DNA of 64,000 nucleotides from Fidelibacterota bacterium (GTDB lineage: Bacteria > Fidelibacterota > UBA8477 > JABMPR01). The stretch is taken from NCBI GenBank assembly GCA_034716895.1, contig JAYEKW010000062.1:17885-81884 (forward strand), read 5' to 3'. A program made the position numbers and the translations under genes. Of the stretch, positions 5,071 to 56,551 are shown piece after piece. How positions within the stretch are numbered: the stretch's first letter is position 1; every line of letters starts with the position of its first letter. The notes under the pieces are model-generated. The model was not told the origin of the DNA. It searched no databases and saw only the letters and a program-made list of their open reading frames with translations.

Positions 5071-5469
5071 GATGTGAATAACTCAAATTTCAGGTTGGGT
5101 TTTAATTTCTTCGACTGCTTCACGGTGGGCTATTTCTCCGTGAAGCCCCTTTATCCGTTGATCCAGTTCACTGGACAAGCCGGTGATCGTCAAGGCGATG
5201 GCAGCAACCCGGGTCACCACTAATGAAAGTGTTCTGATGAGTAGAAGAGATAGGATTGAGATCATTGCGTGAGACTTAATTCCTTAATAATCAATAATAT
5301 GTACCGCTTAAGGCAGAGATTGAAATCTTATTTATCCTGTAGATATTTCACTGCCACCCAACGGACTACAAGATTACAATATACGCTACTAGATATTGAT
5401 ATTGAAGGTATTAAAAGTATTTATTATGAAATAATTGAATGTGTCTTTTAAGCAATAGGGAATTGTCAG

Positions 5470-33132: not shown

Positions 33133-34632
33133 TTGTCCTGCGTGATAGCCGTTCAGGTACCTCAAATATTTTATGATTCGAAGTGTCTTGGAGTCTTTGT
33201 GACAATTGATTTCCGATTATCTTCAATGCGTATGATTAGTCGAATTCCCAAGAATATTCTCAGCGTCCTGCATGCTGCCGGTCGTTTGGCTCAAGAGTCA
33301 GATCTGGAATGCTATACTGTGGGTGGCTTTGTCCGGGATCTTATTCTTAATGTTCCCAGTAAAGATGTGGATATTATGGTCATAGGCGATGGTGTGGCCT
33401 TTGCCCGGAAATTAGGGAAGCATCTTGAGGTGCCTGAAATAGTTGAGTACGGGGAATTCGGGACAGCTCTGATTCCCTATGGTGAATTTCTGATCGAAGT
33501 GGCTTCGGCTCGTACTGAAACTTACGAAGCTGATTCCCGGAAACCCAAGGTGGTATATACCGACCTTAAAGGCGATCTCAGTCGACGAGATTTCACGGTG
33601 AATGCCATGGCTCTGAACCTTGCTCCAGATCATTTTGGTGATCTGATAGATGAATACGGAGGAATTCAGGATATCCAGGATAAGATCTTGCGGACACCCC
33701 TGGATCCCGTAAAAACCTTCGATGATGACCCCTTGCGCATGATGCGAGCAGCTCGTTTTTCAGCTCAATTGGAATTCGATCTGGTGCCGGAAGCTTTGGA
33801 AGCCATGCAGGGTTTGGTGGAGAGGATCAAGATCGTTTCACAGGAACGGGTGACGGATGAGTTGATCAAAACACTGAGAACTAAAGTGCCATCAATTGGT
33901 TTTTATGTGATGCAGGCTGCTGGTCTGCTTCCGTTGGTTTTTCCAGAGATCGCTGTATTGGGGGGCGTAGAAGATCGCGATGGACAAAGTCACAAGGATG
34001 TTTTTCACCATACTTTGAAGGTGGTGGACAATACAGCAGAACGCACGGATAAAATGCAGTTGCGTTTTGCTGCTCTGGTGCATGATATTGGAAAACCAGC
34101 GACCAAAAAATTCATTCCTGGTACAGGCTGGAGTTATCATGGTCATGAAGAACTGGGTCGTATGATGCTCAAGGAAATTGGTCCGCGTCTGCGTCTTTCG
34201 CGCAAGTTAACTGCTTATCTGAAACGGATGACTCGACTTCACCTAAGACCCATCGCTCTGGCTCAGACTGAGGTCACTGATTCTGGAATTCGCAGACTCA
34301 TTGTGGAAGCTGGAGAAAATCTGGATGACCTGATGATTTTAGTACGAGCTGATGTTACCTCCAAGGATCCCCGTCGCGTAAAACGTTATTATGGTAATTT
34401 CGATCGGGTCATGGAACGGATTGAAGTAGTTGTGGAGAAGGATGCTTTACGCGCTTTTCAGTCGCCCCTGCGTGGAAATGAGATCATCGAATTGTTGGGT
34501 ATACCACCGGGTCCTGTAATTGGTCGCATTAAAACAGCGATTGAGGAAGCGATCCTGGATGGTGAGATTCCCAACGAGTATGAAGCCGCGAAAGCATATT
34601 TTTTTAAGATTAAAAACGATTTTCTGGACTAG
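33133..34632 (+). CDS. cca: CCA-adding tRNA nucleotidyltransferase / poly(A) polymerase family with an HD domain
   Basis: Head domain GGFVRDLIL..DVDIM, RDFTVNAMA, and HD motif LVHDIGKP. The start is probably an internal Met near 33226. Confidence 0.8.
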   Translation: MSCVIAVQVPQIFYDSKCLGVFVTIDFRLSSMRMISRIPKNILSVLHAAGRLAQESDLECYTVGGFVRDLILNVPSKDVDIMVIGDGVAFARKLGKHLEVPEIVEYGEFGTALIPYGEFLIEVASARTETYEADSRKPKVVYTDLKGDLSRRDFTVNAMALNLAPDHFGDLIDEYGGIQDIQDKILRTPLDPVKTFDDDPLRMMRAARFSAQLEFDLVPEALEAMQGLVERIKIVSQERVTDELIKTLRTKVPSIGFYVMQAAGLLPLVFPEIAVLGGVEDRDGQSHKDVFHHTLKVVDNTAERTDKMQLRFAALVHDIGKPATKKFIPGTGWSYHGHEELGRMMLKEIGPRLRLSRKLTAYLKRMTRLHLRPIALAQTEVTDSGIRRLIVEAGENLDDLMILVRADVTSKDPRRVKRYYGNFDRVMERIEVVVEKDALRAFQSPLRGNEIIELLGIPPGPVIGRIKTAIEEAILDGEIPNEYEAAKAYFFKIKNDFLD

Positions 34633-41877: not shown

Positions 41878-43122
41878 ATGACCAAAAAGAAAATAATTAT
41901 AATCGTTGTTGCAGTGGTCCTCCTGGGAGTCATTGGATATTTTGCAGTCAATAAGGAAAAAGGAAGCAGCAAGGATGTTCAGGCAGCCAGGGTTGAAAGA
42001 GGAGAGGTTGTCCACAAGGTAGCTGCCTCTGGTAAGATTCAACCTGTGGTAGAGGTTGCTGTTAGTGCCGATGTTGCTGGTCGCGTAATTAAAATGGCGG
42101 TTAAAGAAGGTGACTGGGTCAAAAAAGGACAATTCCTGGCACAACTGGATGCGACTCGTTACAAAGCAGATGTCGATCGGGCTGAACAAGTGCAGGCATC
42201 GGCTGATGCATCGCTTTCCCTGGCAGCCCTGGAAAAAAATCAACAATATAAACTTTATCAAAAGCAGATGGTGAGTGAGCTGATCTTTCAAAGCGCTATG
42301 GTTCGTTACCAACAAGCCCTGTCATCTACAAAACAAGCCCAGGCCGCTCTGACTCAATCGCGTGATAATTATAATAAAACCATAATGTTTGCTCCTATGT
42401 CAGGTACGGTAACACTGGTCAACAAGGAAGTTGGGGAGATGGCTCTGGGGTCAGCATTCAGTCGTGATATCATTATGGTTATTGCGGATCTAAACGATAT
42501 GGAAGTATTAGTTGATGTCAACGAGAATGATGTTGTTGATGTGACTCTAGGAGATACCACTGAGATCGAAATAGATGCTTTACAGGACACCATGTTTACG
42601 GGGATTGTCACTGAGATAGCCCATAGTGCCCAAAACAGTAATCTGGGGAGCCTGGACCAAGTAACCAATTTTAAAGTACATATCCGCTTAATGGATCCGC
42701 CCGATGAAATACGTCCCGGAATGTCTGCTGCAGTGGATATTCGGACGAATGTTCAACGGGATGTCTTATTTGTGCCTATTCAAAGTGTAACCATGCGGAA
42801 ACCACGGCAACTTGAAGAAAAACAGGATAAAGAGTTAAGCCGGGCGGATAGCAGCATGGATAATGAGGATGAAGACCTTGACCCAGTTGAGGTTGTATTT
42901 GTGATAGTGGATAATGAGAAGGGTAAGGGTCAGAAAGTCGAACAACGGGAGATCATCACTGGAATCATAGGTGAGCGTGATTTTGAGATCATCTCTGGTT
43001 TGGAGCTTGATGACCAGATCATTACCGGACCGTATAAACAAATCAGTCGTGGTCTCAATGATGGTGATAAGGTAAAGATAACCAAGCGGAAGAAGTTTAA
43101 TGCAGGGAAAGAAGAAAAATAG
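41878..43122 (+). CDS. macA: Efflux membrane-fusion (periplasmic adaptor) protein, MacA/HlyD family
   Basis: N-terminal TM, coiled-coil hairpin, lipoyl and beta-barrel regions (GKIQPVVEVAVSADVAGRV, LDATRY...), and a MacA-type C-terminus. Confidence 0.8.
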   Translation: MTKKKIIIIVVAVVLLGVIGYFAVNKEKGSSKDVQAARVERGEVVHKVAASGKIQPVVEVAVSADVAGRVIKMAVKEGDWVKKGQFLAQLDATRYKADVDRAEQVQASADASLSLAALEKNQQYKLYQKQMVSELIFQSAMVRYQQALSSTKQAQAALTQSRDNYNKTIMFAPMSGTVTLVNKEVGEMALGSAFSRDIIMVIADLNDMEVLVDVNENDVVDVTLGDTTEIEIDALQDTMFTGIVTEIAHSAQNSNLGSLDQVTNFKVHIRLMDPPDEIRPGMSAAVDIRTNVQRDVLFVPIQSVTMRKPRQLEEKQDKELSRADSSMDNEDEDLDPVEVVFVIVDNEKGKGQKVEQREIITGIIGERDFEIISGLELDDQIITGPYKQISRGLNDGDKVKITKRKKFNAGKEEK

Positions 43123-43138
43123 AATTCAGAATTCAGAA
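43121..43138. repeat. Left inverted repeat AGAATTCAGAATTCAGAA of the four-helix-bundle cassette
   Basis: Perfect 18-bp inverse complement of 43565-43582. Confidence 0.85.
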
Positions 43139-43152
43139 GACAGTAGACGAGA

Positions 43153-43503
43153 ATGCTGACTCCAGCAAGAAAATTTGAAGATTTACTGGTTTGGCAAAAA
43201 GCTCATGCGTTTGTACTATCAATCTATACCTTGTCCAAAACTTTTCCAAAAACAGAACAATTTGGTCTTACCAGTCAGTTTCGCCGAGCTGCAGTTTCAG
43301 TTCCTGCAAACATTGCAGAGGGCTGGAAGCGTAAAGGGAAAGCGGATAAGAAGCGGTTTTATAATATTGCACAGGCCTCCCTCGAAGAATGCCGTTACTA
43401 TCTATTACTCACTCATGACTTGGGATATGGTGAAACTGAAAATGCAAATTCACTTTGTATAGAAGTTTCAAAACTGCTCACTTCATATAACAGTAAAATC
43501 TGA
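43153..43503 (+). CDS. Four-helix-bundle protein (23S rRNA intervening-sequence protein family)
   Basis: 116 aa. FEDLLVWQKAHAFVLSIYTLSKTFPKTEQFGLTSQFRRAAVSVPANIAEGW...IAQASLEECRYYLLL is diagnostic of the family. It is inserted between macA and macB. Confidence 0.85.
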   Translation: MLTPARKFEDLLVWQKAHAFVLSIYTLSKTFPKTEQFGLTSQFRRAAVSVPANIAEGWKRKGKADKKRFYNIAQASLEECRYYLLLTHDLGYGETENANSLCIEVSKLLTSYNSKI

Positions 43504-43564
43504 TAAAATGACGATGATTAAAAAAACGATAAATGATTCTGACAAGAATTCTAACTACTGGATT

Positions 43565-43582
43565 CTGAATTCTGAATTCTTA
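43565..43582. repeat. Right inverted repeat TTCTGAATTCTGAATTCT of the four-helix-bundle cassette
   Basis: Perfect inverse complement of 43121-43138. Extra GAATTC/TTCTGA motifs lie at 43537-43560. Confidence 0.85.
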
Positions 43583-44289: not shown

Positions 44290-45510
44290 ATGAAAAGCTT
44301 CTTCTGGGAGAATTTACGCATCGCTCTGTCCGAACTTTGGGCACACAAGACTCGGACCATCTTGACCGGGACAGGTATTGTCATTGGCATCATTGCTGTG
44401 TCGCTTATGTCGACCCTGATCAGTGGTGTGGACGGTTTATTTGAAGACAGCATGAAATTTTTAGGTCGTGGAAACCTGTATGTTGAGAAATGGCCCTGGT
44501 TTGGTGATGAGGATTGGTGGACCTTAAGAAATAGACCGCGAATTGAACTTGATATGGCTGATGATATTCGAAACCGTTCTGAATATGCTCTGGAAGTTGC
44601 CACAGAAAGAGGACGCTCAGCGAACCTTAGTTATCAAGAATACTCTGCTGAGAATATTTTTATTCATGGAGTAACCTCAAATTACCCTGAAGTATCCACT
44701 GTAGATGTGGAATTTGGCCGATTTTTTACTGATTCTGAAGATCGAACAGGAGCCCAGATCATCCTGCTTGGCTCAGAAGTAGCCAAAACTCTTTTTCCCC
44801 AGGAAAACCCTCTTGATAAACTAATATTTGCTGGTTCAAAGCGTTTCAGGGTTATCGGGGTGCTGGCGGAGATGGGCAAGTTTATGGGCGCGTTTTCTCA
44901 AGATACCCAGGTTTTGATTCCCATGGAAACCTTTAATAAAATCTTTCACGGTCCCTGGGGGATGCGTCGTATTACCGTTAAAGTTCCTGAGGAACATGTT
45001 GAAGATGCCAAGGAAGAACTCCGTGGAGTTGTGCGAGTATTGCGGGGCTTGAAACCTGAAGAAAAAGATGATTTTGCAGTTAATCAACAGGATTCTTTCC
45101 GCCAAACTTACCAAGGGATCAAGATGGCCATTGGGGGAACGGGTCTAATCATTACGGCACTATCACTGTTAGTTGGGGGTATTGGTATAGCAAATATCAT
45201 GTTTGTCTCTGTTAAAGAACGTACCCGTGAGATTGGTGTACGCAAAGCGTTGGGGGCTACGCGCTCGCAGATTCAGGGGCAGTTTATGATCGAAGCCATG
45301 TTGATCACTGCTACTGGTGGCCTGGTTGGACTTCTGGTATCTACTGCTGCCAGTTTGGCTATCAGCAAATTTCTATTTCCAGCCAGCATGTCTTTCGGAA
45401 TCGCTTTCGGAGCAATTGCCCTGAGTATTGCAGTAGGACTTTTTGCCGGCCTTGCCCCTGCCAGAAAAGGAGCCAAGCTGGATCCGATCGAGGCACTTCG
45501 CTATGAATAA
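44290..45510 (+). CDS. ABC transporter permease, FtsX/MacB-like
   Basis: N-terminal TM, a large periplasmic domain, and a C-terminal FtsX-type 3-TM bundle (IGIANIMFVSVKERTREIGVRKALGA). Confidence 0.85.
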   Translation: MKSFFWENLRIALSELWAHKTRTILTGTGIVIGIIAVSLMSTLISGVDGLFEDSMKFLGRGNLYVEKWPWFGDEDWWTLRNRPRIELDMADDIRNRSEYALEVATERGRSANLSYQEYSAENIFIHGVTSNYPEVSTVDVEFGRFFTDSEDRTGAQIILLGSEVAKTLFPQENPLDKLIFAGSKRFRVIGVLAEMGKFMGAFSQDTQVLIPMETFNKIFHGPWGMRRITVKVPEEHVEDAKEELRGVVRVLRGLKPEEKDDFAVNQQDSFRQTYQGIKMAIGGTGLIITALSLLVGGIGIANIMFVSVKERTREIGVRKALGATRSQIQGQFMIEAMLITATGGLVGLLVSTAASLAISKFLFPASMSFGIAFGAIALSIAVGLFAGLAPARKGAKLDPIEALRYE

Positions 45511-45534
45511 AACAACAGTTATTACTATTTCTAC

Positions 45535-45563
45535 TTGCCACAAAGGCACAAAGACACGAAGCG
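45535..45563. repeat. Left inverted repeat of the GxxExxY cassette
   Basis: tgccacaaaggcacaaagacacgaag is the perfect 26-bp inverse complement of 46090-46115. Confidence 0.85.
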
Positions 45564-45606
45564 AATTAAGTAGATATTGTTGAAGTAGAGGTAGTTTATC
45601 AACGCG

Positions 45607-46020
45607 TTGGCATACAAAGGATTTCACGAGAGATATGAATCTCTTACAGAAAGAGAAGAGTCTATAGCAGAACAAATTGTAGATGCTGCTTTTACTGTTC
45701 ATAAAAGATTAGGACCAGGGTTACTAGAAAATATTTATGAAGTTTGCTTCTGCTATGAGCTGGAAAAACGTGGTTTGATAATCAAAAGGCAAGTAAATAT
45801 TCCAATCAAATATGATGGATTGGTATTTGATAAAGGACTACGTCTAGATGTCTTGGTCGATGACTTGATAATTTGCGAATTGAAGGCTGTTGACAAAATG
45901 AATCCAGTATGGAAGGCTCAAATTCTCAGCCACCTAAGAATGTTAAATAAAAGACTGGGGTTCTTGATAAATTTCAATGTTCCAACCATAAAAAATGGTA
46001 TCAAAAGAATTATTTTGTAA
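45607..46020 (+). CDS. GxxExxY protein (PD-(D/E)XK nuclease-fold family)
   Basis: 137 aa. Has the GPGLLENIYEVCFCYEL (GxxExxY) motif. It is inserted between two permease genes. Confidence 0.85.
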   Translation: MAYKGFHERYESLTEREESIAEQIVDAAFTVHKRLGPGLLENIYEVCFCYELEKRGLIIKRQVNIPIKYDGLVFDKGLRLDVLVDDLIICELKAVDKMNPVWKAQILSHLRMLNKRLGFLINFNVPTIKNGIKRIIL

Positions 46021-46087
46021 GGATTCGAAAGTGTTCATAGACATAGCCAACCAAGAGCCTATCCGTTGTTCAATTACTTTTATTAAA

Positions 46088-46116
46088 ACTTCGTGTCTTT
46101 GTGCCTTTGTGGCAGG
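46088..46116. repeat. Right inverted repeat of the GxxExxY cassette
   Basis: cttcgtgtctttgtgcctttgtggca is the inverse complement of 45537-45562. It lies ~30 bp upstream of the next permease start. Confidence 0.85.
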
Positions 46117-46137
46117 TAAAACAACTGACAAAAAGGG

Positions 46138-47406
46138 TTGATTCGAATGTATATTAGAACATCAATTAAAACCTTAAGTGATGCTTTCTTTATGGCTCTG
46201 GAAGCGATTCGGGACAATCTTTTGCGGTCCATTTTAACCTTGTTGGGTATTGTTATTGGTGTATTTGCCATCATTGCGGTGATGACAGCTATCCGTACCC
46301 TGGAATCATCCATTAATTCCGGCTTAAACGTATTTGGTTCGGATGTGATCTTTGTCCAAAAATCGCCGGTGATTCAAATGGGTGATCATAGCAGTCGCCG
46401 CAAATACTGGCGTAGACCGAACATTACCTATGATATGGCTTTGGAACTGAAAGAGCGCATGGTCGGAGCAGAGTTTGTCAGTGTTGCAGATGGTAGTGGA
46501 GGAAAGACCCTGCGCTATCAAAAAGAGAAAACCAACCCGAATGTGGGAGTACAGGGAGTTGATGAATGGGGTTTGGAAGCATCCAGCTACTCTCTGGACT
46601 ATGGCCGTAATTTTATCCCGGAGGATATAGAATATAATCGCCGGGTTGTGGTGCTTGGGACGGATGTAATTGAAAAGCTTTTCCCTTATATGAATCCCAT
46701 GGATCAAACCGTTACCATCAACGGGATCGGATTTAATGTGGTGGGAGTAATGAAGCGCAAGGGGGAAATGTTCGGCCAAAGTCAGGATAATTTTGTGGTG
46801 ATTCCCATTACCACTTACCTGCAACACTTCAGTAGTCGTTGGACATCTTTGGGCATATCTATCAAAGCACCGGATGCGGAAGGTTTTGATACAGTCAAGG
46901 AAGAAGTTATCGATCAGATGCGTATCGTCAGGGGTTTGGGTCCTGATGAGGAAAATGATTTTGAAGTTACATCAAATGATGCGCTTATCGAAACTTTTGG
47001 CTCATTTACAGCAGGGATTAAAATGTTTGCCGGAGCAGTAAGCGTGATTGCATTGGTGGTTGCGGGAATAGGTATCATGAACATCATGTTGGTTTCTGTC
47101 AGCGAGCGCATCAAGGAAATCGGAATTCGCAAAGCCATCGGCGCCACTCGGAACAACATTCTGTTTCAGTTTCTCTTGGAGGCAGTTTTTCTGTCACTGA
47201 TCGGGGGTGTGATCGGTGTGTTGCTGGGGGTTGGGGCAGGGAATATGATTACCCTGGTTCTTAAGAGTGTGGATACCGTGATTCCTATTGATTGGGTCTT
47301 TATCGGACTCTTTACCTGTTCTTTCATCGGGATCGTTTTTGGTATTTATCCAGCTTACAAAGCCGCTGCACTGGATCCCATTGAATCCCTCAGACATGAA
47401 AAGTAA
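46138..47406 (+). CDS. ABC transporter permease, FtsX/MacB-like (second copy)
   Basis: Same architecture as 44290-45510 (GIMNIMLVSVSERIKEIGIRKAIGA). The true start is probably the ATG at 46147. Confidence 0.85.
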   Translation: MIRMYIRTSIKTLSDAFFMALEAIRDNLLRSILTLLGIVIGVFAIIAVMTAIRTLESSINSGLNVFGSDVIFVQKSPVIQMGDHSSRRKYWRRPNITYDMALELKERMVGAEFVSVADGSGGKTLRYQKEKTNPNVGVQGVDEWGLEASSYSLDYGRNFIPEDIEYNRRVVVLGTDVIEKLFPYMNPMDQTVTINGIGFNVVGVMKRKGEMFGQSQDNFVVIPITTYLQHFSSRWTSLGISIKAPDAEGFDTVKEEVIDQMRIVRGLGPDEENDFEVTSNDALIETFGSFTAGIKMFAGAVSVIALVVAGIGIMNIMLVSVSERIKEIGIRKAIGATRNNILFQFLLEAVFLSLIGGVIGVLLGVGAGNMITLVLKSVDTVIPIDWVFIGLFTCSFIGIVFGIYPAYKAAALDPIESLRHEK

Positions 47407-51131: not shown

Positions 51132-52304
51132 TTAAATCTTCACAAAAATTTTCTTATAATACAGATACCACAGAATCCCCAGCCAGAACAGGATAAAGGT
51201 AATTGCAAACAGGAGTGAGCCATTCAATTCACCTGCCAGTGGAACAAAGAAACCGTTGTATAGCGCGTGTTTGATCGAAATGATGGCTCCTTCTGAATCA
51301 GTGGTTTTTATCCGATACATCAATCGTCCAATGATTCCAGATCCCACAAATACCACCAGGGGATTGCTGCCGAAAACAATGGCAGGTTTGGTCCAGAAAG
51401 TCATTTTTTTTACATCGATAAGGTAAGAGGAAATAACGATCATCAGGATTGCCAGTCCATCCATGACGATAACATAGGAAACCGTCCACAATTGTTTATT
51501 AATTGGTTCTATCAGGCTGAGCAGTGATCCTGCAATAAAAAGGATGATTCCAATTACAGTCAGATTTGTCAATTTCTCCTGATGGCCAATTGGACGACGT
51601 AGATATTCACCCAGCCAAAAGCCACTCATGAGTGTTACCGCTGCCGGCAGGGTGGATAACAGGCCCTCTGGATCAAATGGCAATCCCATACCGCCGTATA
51701 TATGAGCTTCACCCAGAATGAGGATATCCAGATAACGGACAAAATTATATTCCAGCTCAAAACTACCGGCACCCCAACCTTCAATTAGCGGAACCCGCAT
51801 AAAGAACTCGTAGATCAGGATGAGTACTGCAACGGACAGAATCCTATCCCTGTTTTTCGGGAAGTAAAGAATGATCAATCCACCGATCAGATAGCTCAAG
51901 CCAATTCTTTGCAAGACGCCCACAAAACGCAATGTTTCAAATCGGCGGAATATGTCGAGGAATTCAAAATCAGCAGCCATTTGAGCATTAAGCGGGATGT
52001 TGAATGGGAAACCATTCAAAAACAAACCGAATCCGATGATGATAGCAGTCCGGGACCAGACTTTTTTCTTCAAATCCCTTACATCAGCACCAGCTTCCAC
52101 CCGTTTTCCGAAACTGAGCGCCATGGCTACACCCACAATAAACAGGAAGAAAGGGAATACCAGATCTGTTGGTGTCCAACCGTGCCATTTGGCGTGTCGA
52201 AGCGGACCATATATGTGGGACCAGCTACCCGGATTGTTGACCAGGATCATGAGACCAACTGTCAATCCCCGAAAAACATCCAACGATATCATCCGACCTT
52301 TCAT
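51132..52304 (-). CDS. DUF1624/HGSNAT-like integral membrane acyltransferase
   Basis: N-terminal RMISLDVFRGLTVGLMILVNNPG is typical of DUF1624 (heparan-alpha-glucosaminide N-acetyltransferase-like) proteins. ~10 TM. Confidence 0.65.
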   Translation of the reverse strand: MKGRMISLDVFRGLTVGLMILVNNPGSWSHIYGPLRHAKWHGWTPTDLVFPFFLFIVGVAMALSFGKRVEAGADVRDLKKKVWSRTAIIIGFGLFLNGFPFNIPLNAQMAADFEFLDIFRRFETLRFVGVLQRIGLSYLIGGLIILYFPKNRDRILSVAVLILIYEFFMRVPLIEGWGAGSFELEYNFVRYLDILILGEAHIYGGMGLPFDPEGLLSTLPAAVTLMSGFWLGEYLRRPIGHQEKLTNLTVIGIILFIAGSLLSLIEPINKQLWTVSYVIVMDGLAILMIVISSYLIDVKKMTFWTKPAIVFGSNPLVVFVGSGIIGRLMYRIKTTDSEGAIISIKHALYNGFFVPLAGELNGSLLFAITFILFWLGILWYLYYKKIFVKI

Positions 52305-52827
52305 ACACTCTCCTTTAAAGCTTTATTAATTGCCACAAAGACACCAAGTCACAAAGACGCATATTGGGAAGCCATTGCGTGGTTTAGTATTTTCAAGATA
52401 GTTTGGTATCTATGCACTCATATAGGATCCAAAATAGGGTTAAAGTGAAAAATAGCCACATTAGATTTTGGAAAAGTCATGCAAACAGCCAATTGCTTGC
52501 TTCGCAAGAATTCATATGATGCAAGACATCTCTCCCCTCCAAGAGAGATACCCACAGAGGAGGGGGGGTTCAAAAGTCCAACATTTTGATTTCAGCCCTC
52601 AAAACATCGATGAGTGAGAATAATATCAGAATTCTCAGGATGAAAATAATCCCTCCAATCACATCAAACTGGTTTAATATTTGCTTCGAGCAATCATGAA
52701 TAATCCACATCAGTTAGCTAAATGGTAAATTGATGCAGTGAGTTCACACTTGAAATTTGGACTGGGAAGTTGTTATTTATCCCGTGTTTGATCAACTTAG
52801 CCTTAACCATAGATTGGAGCTAGTATC

Positions 52828-56308: not shown

Positions 56309-56436
56309 CGCGTTGCATGTTTGGGTTAGGAGATTCCTGAACTTGTCGAAGAGGCAGTAAAGGATTTGCAACTATCCTAACATAATCTGAAATATGTTTG
56401 GCTACGCGAAAACAGGTTTCATGTACAATAAGATTC

Positions 56437-56475
56437 AAAACTCAGGGCTGACAATTGTCAGCCCTGAGTTTTTTT
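56437..56475. terminator. Bidirectional rho-independent terminator
   Basis: aaaa-ctcagggctgaca-att-tgtcagccctgag-ttttttt: a ~12-bp perfect stem with an A-run 5' and a T-run 3'. It lies between the convergent sdhB and FG-GAP genes. Confidence 0.8.
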
Positions 56476-56551
56476 AGCCAAAACCTGTTTTCAGGGAGCA
56501 GAACGAGACAAACAGGTTTCAGGATTTTATTCCTCCGGAAACGGGTTGGAT

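Follow-up and report, generated by a model that had tools for sequence, protein, structure and literature searches.

We analysed a 64-kb stretch (hereafter the window, in whose coordinates positions are given) from a metagenome-assembled genome (MAG) of Candidatus Marinimicrobia (Neomarinimicrobiota), in which a small gene of the GxxExxY family lies, tightly enclosed by a perfect inverted repeat (IR), between the last two genes of an operon with the order TolC, membrane-fusion protein (MFP), ABC ATPase, MacB permease 1 and MacB permease 2. On balance, our results favour the interpretation that this insert belongs to a very large family of mobile insertion cassettes, compact units that ride on the transcript of their host operon, with an arm stem like that of the intervening sequences (IVSs) of 23S rRNA and a probable RNase III site.

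The perfect 26-bp repeat around the GxxExxY gene, which an earlier, sequence-only reading of this DNA had noticed, is real, although the coordinates then given were shifted by +1: the 26-mer TGCCACAAAGGCACAAAGACACGAAG occupies 45536-45561 (+), and 46089-46114 is its exact reverse complement. Not one of 100 dinucleotide-preserving shuffles of the window gave such a match, even with 3 mismatches allowed. Extended to 33 nt at 94% complementarity (45529-45561 / 46089-46121), the cassette IR is the strongest long-range inverted repeat of the window. The left arm (45529..45561, +) has its perfect core at 45536-45561 and an imperfect outward extension at 45529-45535, and the right arm (46089..46121, +) has the complementary core at 46089-46114 and an extension to 46121. 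The left core reads GCCAC followed by three 8-nt units (CACAAAGG, CACAAAGA, CACGAAG). Between this arm and the start codon is a leader (45562..45606, +) with a Shine-Dalgarno (SD)-like GAGG at 45588-45591 and an in-frame TAG at 45592-45594, followed by the minigene itself (45607..46020, +), which has a TTG start and encodes a minimal PD-(D/E)XK nuclease of 137 aa with the motif G38-E41-Y44 and the catalytic-type residues D81, E91 and K93. The minigene starts 96 nt past the stop codon of permease 1, and 32 nt separate the end of the right arm from the ATG of permease 2 (46147).

These arms follow a grammar that recurs throughout the family. We sampled 80 metagenomic loci encoding relatives (61-77% identical), 77 of them with usable flanks, and found pattern-matching arms on both sides of the GxxExxY gene at 57 of the 77; the IR is a family-wide companion of GxxExxY genes and not unique to this locus, so that the refuting condition set by the sequence-only reading does not hold. 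The family form of the arm is GCCAC(NAAGNCAC)2NAAG, the units of the window being CACNAAGN, and the window left arm fits the pattern GCCACNAAGNCACNAAGNCACNAAG at 20 of 20 defined positions. Typically, the distance from the left arm to the ATG is ~7 nt, and 4-15 nt lie between the stop codon and the right arm. Across 47 unique high-quality arm pairs, the CAC and AAG triplets hardly vary in either arm, and the five N positions accept any base. CGC-type arms (TCTCGCAGAGNTCGCAGAG) belong to a second GxxExxY subfamily, which shares 44% identity with the window protein and whose proteins are 74% identical among themselves as against 42-45% to those of the CAC type. Cultured isolates have yet other units, CRCAGAGG in Bacteroides finegoldii and CGCGARGR in Sphingomonas parapaucimobilis, giving (C-R-C-N-R-A-G-N) x 3, inverted on each side of the gene, as the general arm form. 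Arm type follows the GxxExxY protein clade, across phyla.

The perfection of the repeat, true of the window, is not the rule of the family: the window is an outlier (1 of 47), and typical copies pair at the conserved triplets only. The arm duplex has an energy of -28 kcal/mol in typical copies, -12 when arms are shuffled, and -46.6 in the window, the most stable of the 47. At the N positions of gene-bearing cassettes we counted 66 Watson-Crick pairs against 75.3 +/- 6.4 with shuffled partners, mismatches being slightly enriched, while some compensation is seen at the central base of the CAC triplet (6 cases against 1.2 +/- 1.1), mostly in one CTC-type lineage. Selection for a perfect stem was rejected, as the N positions co-vary neither in gene-bearing cassettes nor in gene-less hairpins, the null for the hairpins being biased in that many of their arms were picked by an exact-26-mer search. 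Decay with age was likewise rejected as the source of the N mismatches, as copies with intact target-site duplications (TSDs; L051, L058, L075/L096, L086, L104) match at 0-3 of the 5 N positions. Because the orthologous insertion in the related locus L122 agrees with the window at 4 of 5 N bases in the right arm and only 2 of 5 in the left, a comparison of these sequences points to a recent copying of one window arm onto the other. A genome-wide search for the exact 26-mer, which the sequence-only reading had called for, finds it in 29 genomes from many phyla; since ~20 of its 26 positions are fixed by the motif and the arms are very many, such identity is expected by chance, and we rejected it as proof of horizontal transfer. 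The most unusual feature here is the period-8 pattern, three conserved bases and one free, of arms that are inverted yet do not co-vary; it could reflect either sequence-specific protein contacts in each arm or the recognition of a regularly mismatched helix.

The association between these arms and the gene is exclusive. A scan of 570 kb of arm-rich DNA yielded 313 arms, and all consecutive +/- arm pairs more than 350 nt apart (58 of 58) enclose a GxxExxY gene; among the same arms there is no pair enclosing a transposase and no cognate autonomous insertion sequence (IS) with the same ends. The gene-less arm pairs comprise 33 tight hairpins (loop < 60 nt) and 13 pairs, with 60-350 nt between arms, that resemble MITEs (miniature inverted-repeat transposable elements). 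Hairpins also occur in tandem arrays, with copy numbers that vary from strain to strain, and decayed GxxExxY genes occur in L006, L122/L123 and L025.

Three further observations concern individual copies. At the metK|ahcY junction (L031-L040, L129-L135) a GxxExxY gene sits amid tandem hairpin arrays, where units made of the gene 3' end plus right arm, and of spacer plus hairpin, are duplicated 1-4 times with strain-variable copy number. In L006 (Chitinophagales), an in-frame TGA at 5248-5250 replaces the conserved Cys codon of the I-C-E-L-K catalytic motif, and is either the mark of a pseudogene or a sequencing error. Two arm-like motifs of the window (CACNAAGNCAC...), at 33183-33205 (-) and 52331-52362 (+), stand alone, neither having a recognisable partner, one in a divergent intergenic region and the other just upstream of the minus-strand gene 51132-52304.

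Comparison of Marinimicrobia operons with a permease 2 identity of 87-94% revealed extensive polymorphism at orthologous junctions. The genes flanking the window cassette are permease 1 (44290..45510, +; PF12704 MacB_PCD and PF02687 FtsX), with orthologs in L121-L128, and permease 2 (46147..47406, +), whose ATG at 46147 is favoured over a TTG at 46138 and whose orthologs have 418-419 aa. In the window, a four-helix-bundle (4HB) cassette lies between the MFP and ATPase genes, the ATPase|permease 1 junction is empty (TAA then ATG directly), and the permease 1|permease 2 junction holds the CAC-type GxxExxY cassette. The corresponding junctions of L121 (94%) hold, in the same order, a 4HB cassette with a left arm of about nine 14-nt units (2150-2290), a CGC-type GxxExxY cassette, and a gene-less CAC-type arm pair; those of L122/L123 (90%), a GIY-YIG remnant with its own IR, a decayed CGC-type GxxExxY gene, and an intact CAC-type GxxExxY cassette. 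L124/L125 (89%) have an empty first junction (67-nt gap), an empty second one (TAAATG) and a 160-nt gap without CAC arms at the third, and L126-L128 (87%) have a 4HB cassette, an empty junction and a CGC-type GxxExxY cassette. The occupants of each junction differ among orthologous operons, which means that cassettes of different types inserted independently at the same junctions. Equally visible across these relatives is the life cycle of the cassette, in which an intact gene decays and finally only the arms are left. The sequence-only reading had likened the insert to a selfish element and called the operon a double insertion target; both views are supported. That the insert is no part of the ancestral operon is shown by L124, which lacks the cassette, L121 with its arms alone and L126 with a different cassette at the same junction, and across relatives the operon is a target at three junctions, for four cassette types or more.

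The short GIY-YIG ORF remnant (L122 2047-2343, also in L123; PF01541, E = 1e-6) has its own IR, GTCATaCtGAGcgGAGTCGAag, and makes GIY-YIG a third family of minigenes to use the MFP|ATPase junction, which in the window is occupied by the 4HB cassette. In the cassette-free permease 1|permease 2 spacer of L124 (5366-5471) there is an unrelated imperfect IR (33 nt, 76%), which may be the remnant of another element.

Some copies are flanked by TSDs. Direct repeats of at least 8 bp were found in the outer flanks of 11 of 52 cassettes, against 2.6 expected (at most 7 in 200 partner shuffles), and exact 8/8 repeats abut the extended IR ends of 3 cassettes, against 0.10 expected (at most 2 in 500). A first test, restricted to offsets of 0-5 nt from the arms, was negative; the true ends of the element are 7-15 nt further out than the periodic arms. 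The duplication is clean in L051 (AAATCAGC), L058 (AAAAATAG), L104 (CAATTTCT), L075 (CCATGGGC) and L096 (AAAAAGCA), and L086 has an 11-bp repeat (TTAAGAAAAGA) on its flanks. The ends of L104, L096 and similar loci read GTAAC...GTTAC with an 8-bp TSD; those of the window cassette do not read GTAA. The window itself has a 9-bp direct repeat, TAAAACAAC, found by a direct-repeat search at 45508..45516, where it takes in the stop codon of permease 1, and at 46117..46125. Repeats of at least 9 bp occur in ~1.7% of partner-shuffled flank pairs, and we treat this one as a candidate TSD only, because its copies are placed asymmetrically. No clean TSD was recovered at the tight ATPase|permease 1 junction. 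In addition, L091 and L096 have identical arms and the same right flank with different left flanks, the clean 8-bp TSD being present only in L096, a pattern that could stem from recombination between copies or from an assembly chimera.

The cassettes show a strong sense orientation bias. The upstream neighbour is co-oriented at 61 of 67 loci, the downstream neighbour at 53 of 59, and both at 36 of 47, against ~25% by chance; with ~90% of neighbours co-oriented, the orientation points to read-through transcription. No promoter- or terminator-like signals above chance were found around the window cassette. The suggestion that the right arm could supply a promoter for permease 2 was not borne out, there being no + strand sigma-70-like site in or after that arm and neighbours being co-oriented as described. 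Insertion sites are many and unrelated, among them the MacB junctions, metK|ahcY, fabD|fabG (in fabD-fabG-acpP-fabF, Sphingomonas parapaucimobilis), radA|downstream gene (Bacteroides finegoldii) and ATPase|vWA. No Rfam family, and hence no intron, was found in the window region or in 20 related loci, and none of the 20 largest related loci has an rRNA gene context. A phage or plasmid vector was considered and rejected, with 2 distant hits in 2.9 million viral contigs and hits in 6 of 72,556 plasmids.

The encoded protein has the PD-(D/E)XK fold, with the GxxExxY motif and catalytic residues intact. The window protein scores 135.5 bits with TIGR04256 GxxExxY (cut-off 35) and 130 bits with PF13366 PDDEXK_3 (cut-off 22), the only ORF of the cassette being PDDEXK_3 with no transposase domain in profile searches. 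D81, E91 and K93 are invariant across an alignment of 23 homologs, which answers favourably the question of catalytic integrity that the sequence-only reading had raised, and the family as a whole is under strong purifying selection. It is also very large, with 17,629 clusters at 50% identity (E <= 0.001) spread over many phyla. Tandem two-domain fusions of 265-295 aa exist (P0242, P0253, P0254 and others), which suggests, by sequence, that the single-domain proteins act as dimers. A sequence search of the PDB returned no homolog, and PADLOC matched none of its defence-system models, a weak hit to Cas4 (E = 0.002) being all that it gave. The arms have also left a trace in protein databases: GxxExxY entries starting with 'ATKTRRHK' (e.g. 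SLATKTRRHK; P0025, P0031, P0075, P0084) begin with the left arm translated in frame, and such N-terminal peptides are, as their sequences indicate, a systematic annotation artefact of gene calls that start upstream. In the window, the leader TAG removes the N-terminal extension present in close homologs (alignment with P0002, P0003 and P0011).

At the RNA level, the predicted fold of 45511-46150 is closed by the two arms in a stem of ~31 bp, in both the minimum free energy (MFE) and centroid structures, with an MFE of -172 against -137 +/- 5 kcal/mol for shuffles (z = -6.9), and both the SD-like GAGG and the TTG start fall within an inner helix. The 4HB cassette 2 kb upstream (43121..43580, +), which the sequence-only reading had rightly singled out as a neighbouring insertion, has a similar architecture with another family of gene (43153-43503; TIGR02436/PF05635, the 23S rRNA IVS protein). 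Its own, different 26-nt IR (43121-43146 / 43555-43580, 92%), built from the 7-nt units GAATTCA/GAAGACA, is the second-strongest long-range IR of the window, and a closing stem is again predicted (z = -5.8). This cassette is missing from the orthologous operons of L124 and L122. A common set of arms for 4HB and GxxExxY cassettes was rejected, CAC-type arms being present at 0 of 4 4HB genes.

The 4HB cassette leads to the IVSs of rRNA genes. In Coxiella, the 23S rRNA IVS contains a sense 4HB (S23p) ORF with AGAAGA and a strain-variable number of tandem heptamers before it, and the whole is enclosed by an IR stem in which cleavage by RNase III was shown experimentally (PMC4990558). By analogy, the window 4HB cassette, with its GAATTCA/GAAGACA heptamers and AGAAGACAG, is a non-rRNA counterpart of the Coxiella IVS. 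In bacteria of the candidate phyla radiation (CPR), moreover, non-intron rRNA insertions encode 23S_rRNA_IVP and GIY-YIG proteins (PMC11270868). In view of the Coxiella IVS and of these CPR inserts, the cassette guild of this MacB operon would, by the same analogy, be the guild found in rRNA genes.

Together, these observations lead us to propose the following mechanism. The cassette is a unit of 0.45-0.6 kb in which one promoterless gene for a PD-(D/E)XK nuclease of ~130 aa lies tightly between inverted arms, each made of three 8-nt units C-R-C-N-R-A-G-N and capped GCCAC...GTGGC. Cassettes are inserted in sense in short spacers between co-transcribed host genes, recent copies bearing 8-bp TSDs, and with time the gene would decay, leaving gene-less hairpins or MITE-like arm pairs able to multiply into arrays. 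The window copy would be transcribed within the TolC-MFP-ATPase-permease 1-permease 2 mRNA, where its arms may pair as a perfect 26-31-bp duplex that loops out the minigene and buries its start codon. The operon mRNA would probably be processed at this stem, since the geometry equals that of the ORF-bearing IVSs of 23S rRNA, whose stems are cut by RNase III, and expression of the nuclease would be gated by the stem. We are inclined to accept the joint statement that the cassette is or recently was mobile, depends on read-through, loops out with occlusion of its start, and encodes a dimeric nuclease that reads the arms. The arms would be the recognition sites of the encoded and probably dimeric nuclease, which would have a role in mobility, the stem being a presumed substrate of RNase III; the cassette could be mobilised by its own nuclease or by a transposase acting in trans.

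Several points weigh against this proposal. A hydrolytic PD-(D/E)XK nuclease alone is not known to bring about transposition with TSDs, and the cassette encodes no strand-transfer enzyme. Clean TSDs are found in a minority of copies only, and the 9-bp repeat of the window lies 20 nt outside the left arm and 3 nt outside the right one and was not recovered by the IR-anchored test. The sequence outside the arms differs between the L121 and L122 insertions at the tight ATPase|permease 1 junction, so that exact element ends are not defined for all subfamilies. The arms show no sense-strand G-U bias (33 against 31 G-U compatible), and this, together with the lack of co-variation at N positions, leaves no positive sign of selection on an RNA stem. 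Finally, the TTG start, the poorly spaced SD-like motif and the truncated N-terminal extension mean that, judged by its sequence, the window gene may be weakly expressed or beginning to decay.

A bolder form of the proposal, which we put forward tentatively and consider rather unlikely as a whole, is that GxxExxY cassettes constitute a new autonomous class of mobile elements, whose sole protein is a minimal dimeric PD-(D/E)XK nuclease recognising periodically mismatched arms (three paired positions and one free). They would then be the PD-(D/E)XK counterpart of repetitive extragenic palindromic (REP) sequences and their REP-associated tyrosine transposases (RAYTs) and would form, with the 4HB and GIY-YIG cassettes, a guild living in transcribed spacers, of which the rRNA members are the IVSs.

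Of similarly limited probability, possible and by no means preferred, is the explanation that the cassette is non-autonomous, a mobile insertion cassette (MIC) or MITE with a passenger, mobilised in trans by a DDE transposase whose gene lies elsewhere in the genome and which may belong to the IS66 family, and that GxxExxY is a passenger offering the element or the host some other benefit, such as addiction, repair or defence. Terminal IRs, an 8-bp TSD and the lack of a transposase gene are the very definition of a MIC/MITE (PMC3129680), the GTAAC...GTTAC ends of the cleanest cases recall IS66-family IRs, which start with GTAAGCG and come with 8-bp duplications (PMC11946415), and a hydrolytic nuclease by itself cannot explain strand transfer. 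However, in the 570 kb of arm-rich DNA no arm pair surrounds a transposase and every long pair surrounds a GxxExxY gene, and arm type co-varies with the GxxExxY clade, as expected if the protein reads the arms and not obviously so for a passenger. The link to IS66 consists of only ~4 nt in common with IS66 ends, in one subfamily only; the ends of the window cassette do not read GTAA.

We consider it improbable that the insert is now mainly a host-level RNA element, its stem serving as an RNase III site or as a REP-like mRNA-stabilising hairpin that sets the relative expression of permeases 1 and 2, with a minigene that is incidental or decaying. REP hairpins do stabilise upstream mRNA in E. 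coli operons, the predicted closing stem of the window is very stable, and a gene-less arm pair persists at the same junction in L121. For the Coxiella IVS, too, it has been argued that the RNA, and not its ORF, is the relevant part (PMC4990558). Against this, the closest cassette-free ortholog, L124, has the same operon without such arms, the N positions neither co-vary nor favour G-U pairs on the sense strand, and the family-wide purifying selection on the protein is unexpected for an incidental ORF.

The sequence-only reading had compared the insert to a minimal IS200-like or homing-like element, a comparison in keeping with the small nuclease gene, the structured ends and the selfish distribution, but one that we find very improbable. 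Evidence against IS200/IS605 is the lack of an HUH/Y1 transposase, ends formed by inverted terminal repeats in place of asymmetric subterminal hairpins, and the occurrence of 8-bp target duplications; the absence of any intron or intein context (nothing in Rfam) and the many unrelated sites, with no homing to a cognate allele, speak against a homing endonuclease. That the IR is a chance match or an ordinary intergenic terminator beside an unrelated small gene, for which only the AT-rich intergenic setting can be cited, is refuted by the window shuffles, by the same arm grammar at 57 of 77 independent loci and by the lack of a terminator-like site.

If the favoured interpretation is correct, it would change how such genes are annotated. 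GxxExxY or 4HB minigenes in cas and other operons were previously read as functional partners of their neighbours (PMC3936711, PMC8934634), and 23S_rRNA_IVP genes were noted between cmr3 and cmr2 in cas operons (PMC3936711); viewing them as insertion cassettes would correct this guilt by association and flag mis-called N-terminal extensions that are translated arms. It would also offer a testable route to the origin of rRNA intervening sequences, which has been called an open question since about 1990 (PMC4990558), and the conserved triplets with a free fourth base at period 8 make an unusual pattern of nucleic-acid recognition, possibly tied to a new mobility mechanism. A perfect 26-bp duplex between the permease genes likely affects, according to this model, how the host processes the operon mRNA and in what ratio the subunits are made. 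Our literature search on GxxExxY returned the database family name and essentially no paper, none describing an element; the cassette family is thus very common yet undescribed in the searchable literature, although its protein already has a database name.

Elsewhere in the window, a perfect loopless palindrome of 18+18 nt (AAAACTCAGGGCTGACAA/TTGTCAGCCCTGAGTTTT) at 56437-56472 is nested within a second IR (56396-56419 / 56481-56504, 79%).

Comparison with known systems places the GxxExxY cassettes between several classes. With MICs and MITEs they have in common terminal IRs, 8-bp TSDs, the lack of a transposase gene, a small ORF carried as a passenger and miniature derivatives without the gene; in the window, the terminal IR matches at 26/26 and no transposase is present, while the TSD is only the asymmetric 9-bp candidate. 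They differ from this class in that their cargo always belongs to the same nuclease family, with an arm type that tracks the cargo clade, in the construction of the arms from three 8-nt units with free fourth positions, and in their strong preference for a sense orientation within operons. Like REPs, their doublets (REPINs) and RAYTs, they include palindromic repeats dispersed or clustered in intergenic DNA, in arrays similar to bacterial interspersed mosaic elements (BIMEs), and a small nuclease-type gene flanked by those repeats in inverted orientation. However, a RAYT is an HUH/Y1 (IS200-like) transposase, whereas the GxxExxY protein has the PD-(D/E)XK fold, and RAYTs are usually single-copy and vertically inherited, whereas GxxExxY cassettes are polymorphic at orthologous sites and leave TSDs.

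IS200/IS605 elements are likewise very small and have structured DNA ends, yet they require a TnpA HUH transposase, have asymmetric subterminal hairpins and make no TSD, none of which is true of GxxExxY cassettes. Homing endonuclease genes differ in that the cassette lacks an intron or intein context by Rfam and its sites are many and unrelated. The protein itself resembles the archaeal Hjc resolvase and Cas4 in its fold and its D...E-x-K catalytic triad; Hjc, at 120-140 aa, is also near the size of GxxExxY, whose tandem fusions suggest dimeric use. With the ORF-bearing IVSs of 23S rRNA (Coxiella, Leptospira; S23p) the cassettes have in common an IR stem around a small sense ORF within a host transcript, short tandem arm units, which are heptamers in Coxiella and in the window 4HB cassette, a strain-variable copy number and a sporadic distribution. 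The GxxExxY site is, in contrast, the spacer of an mRNA operon and not an rRNA helix, and the cargo is a nuclease and not a 4HB protein. The IVS stem is cut by RNase III (PMC4990558), whereas the duplex of the window, perfect over 26-31 bp, is a predicted one. In sum, the GxxExxY cassette behaves like a MIC or MITE and like a REP/RAYT system, and looks like an IVS.

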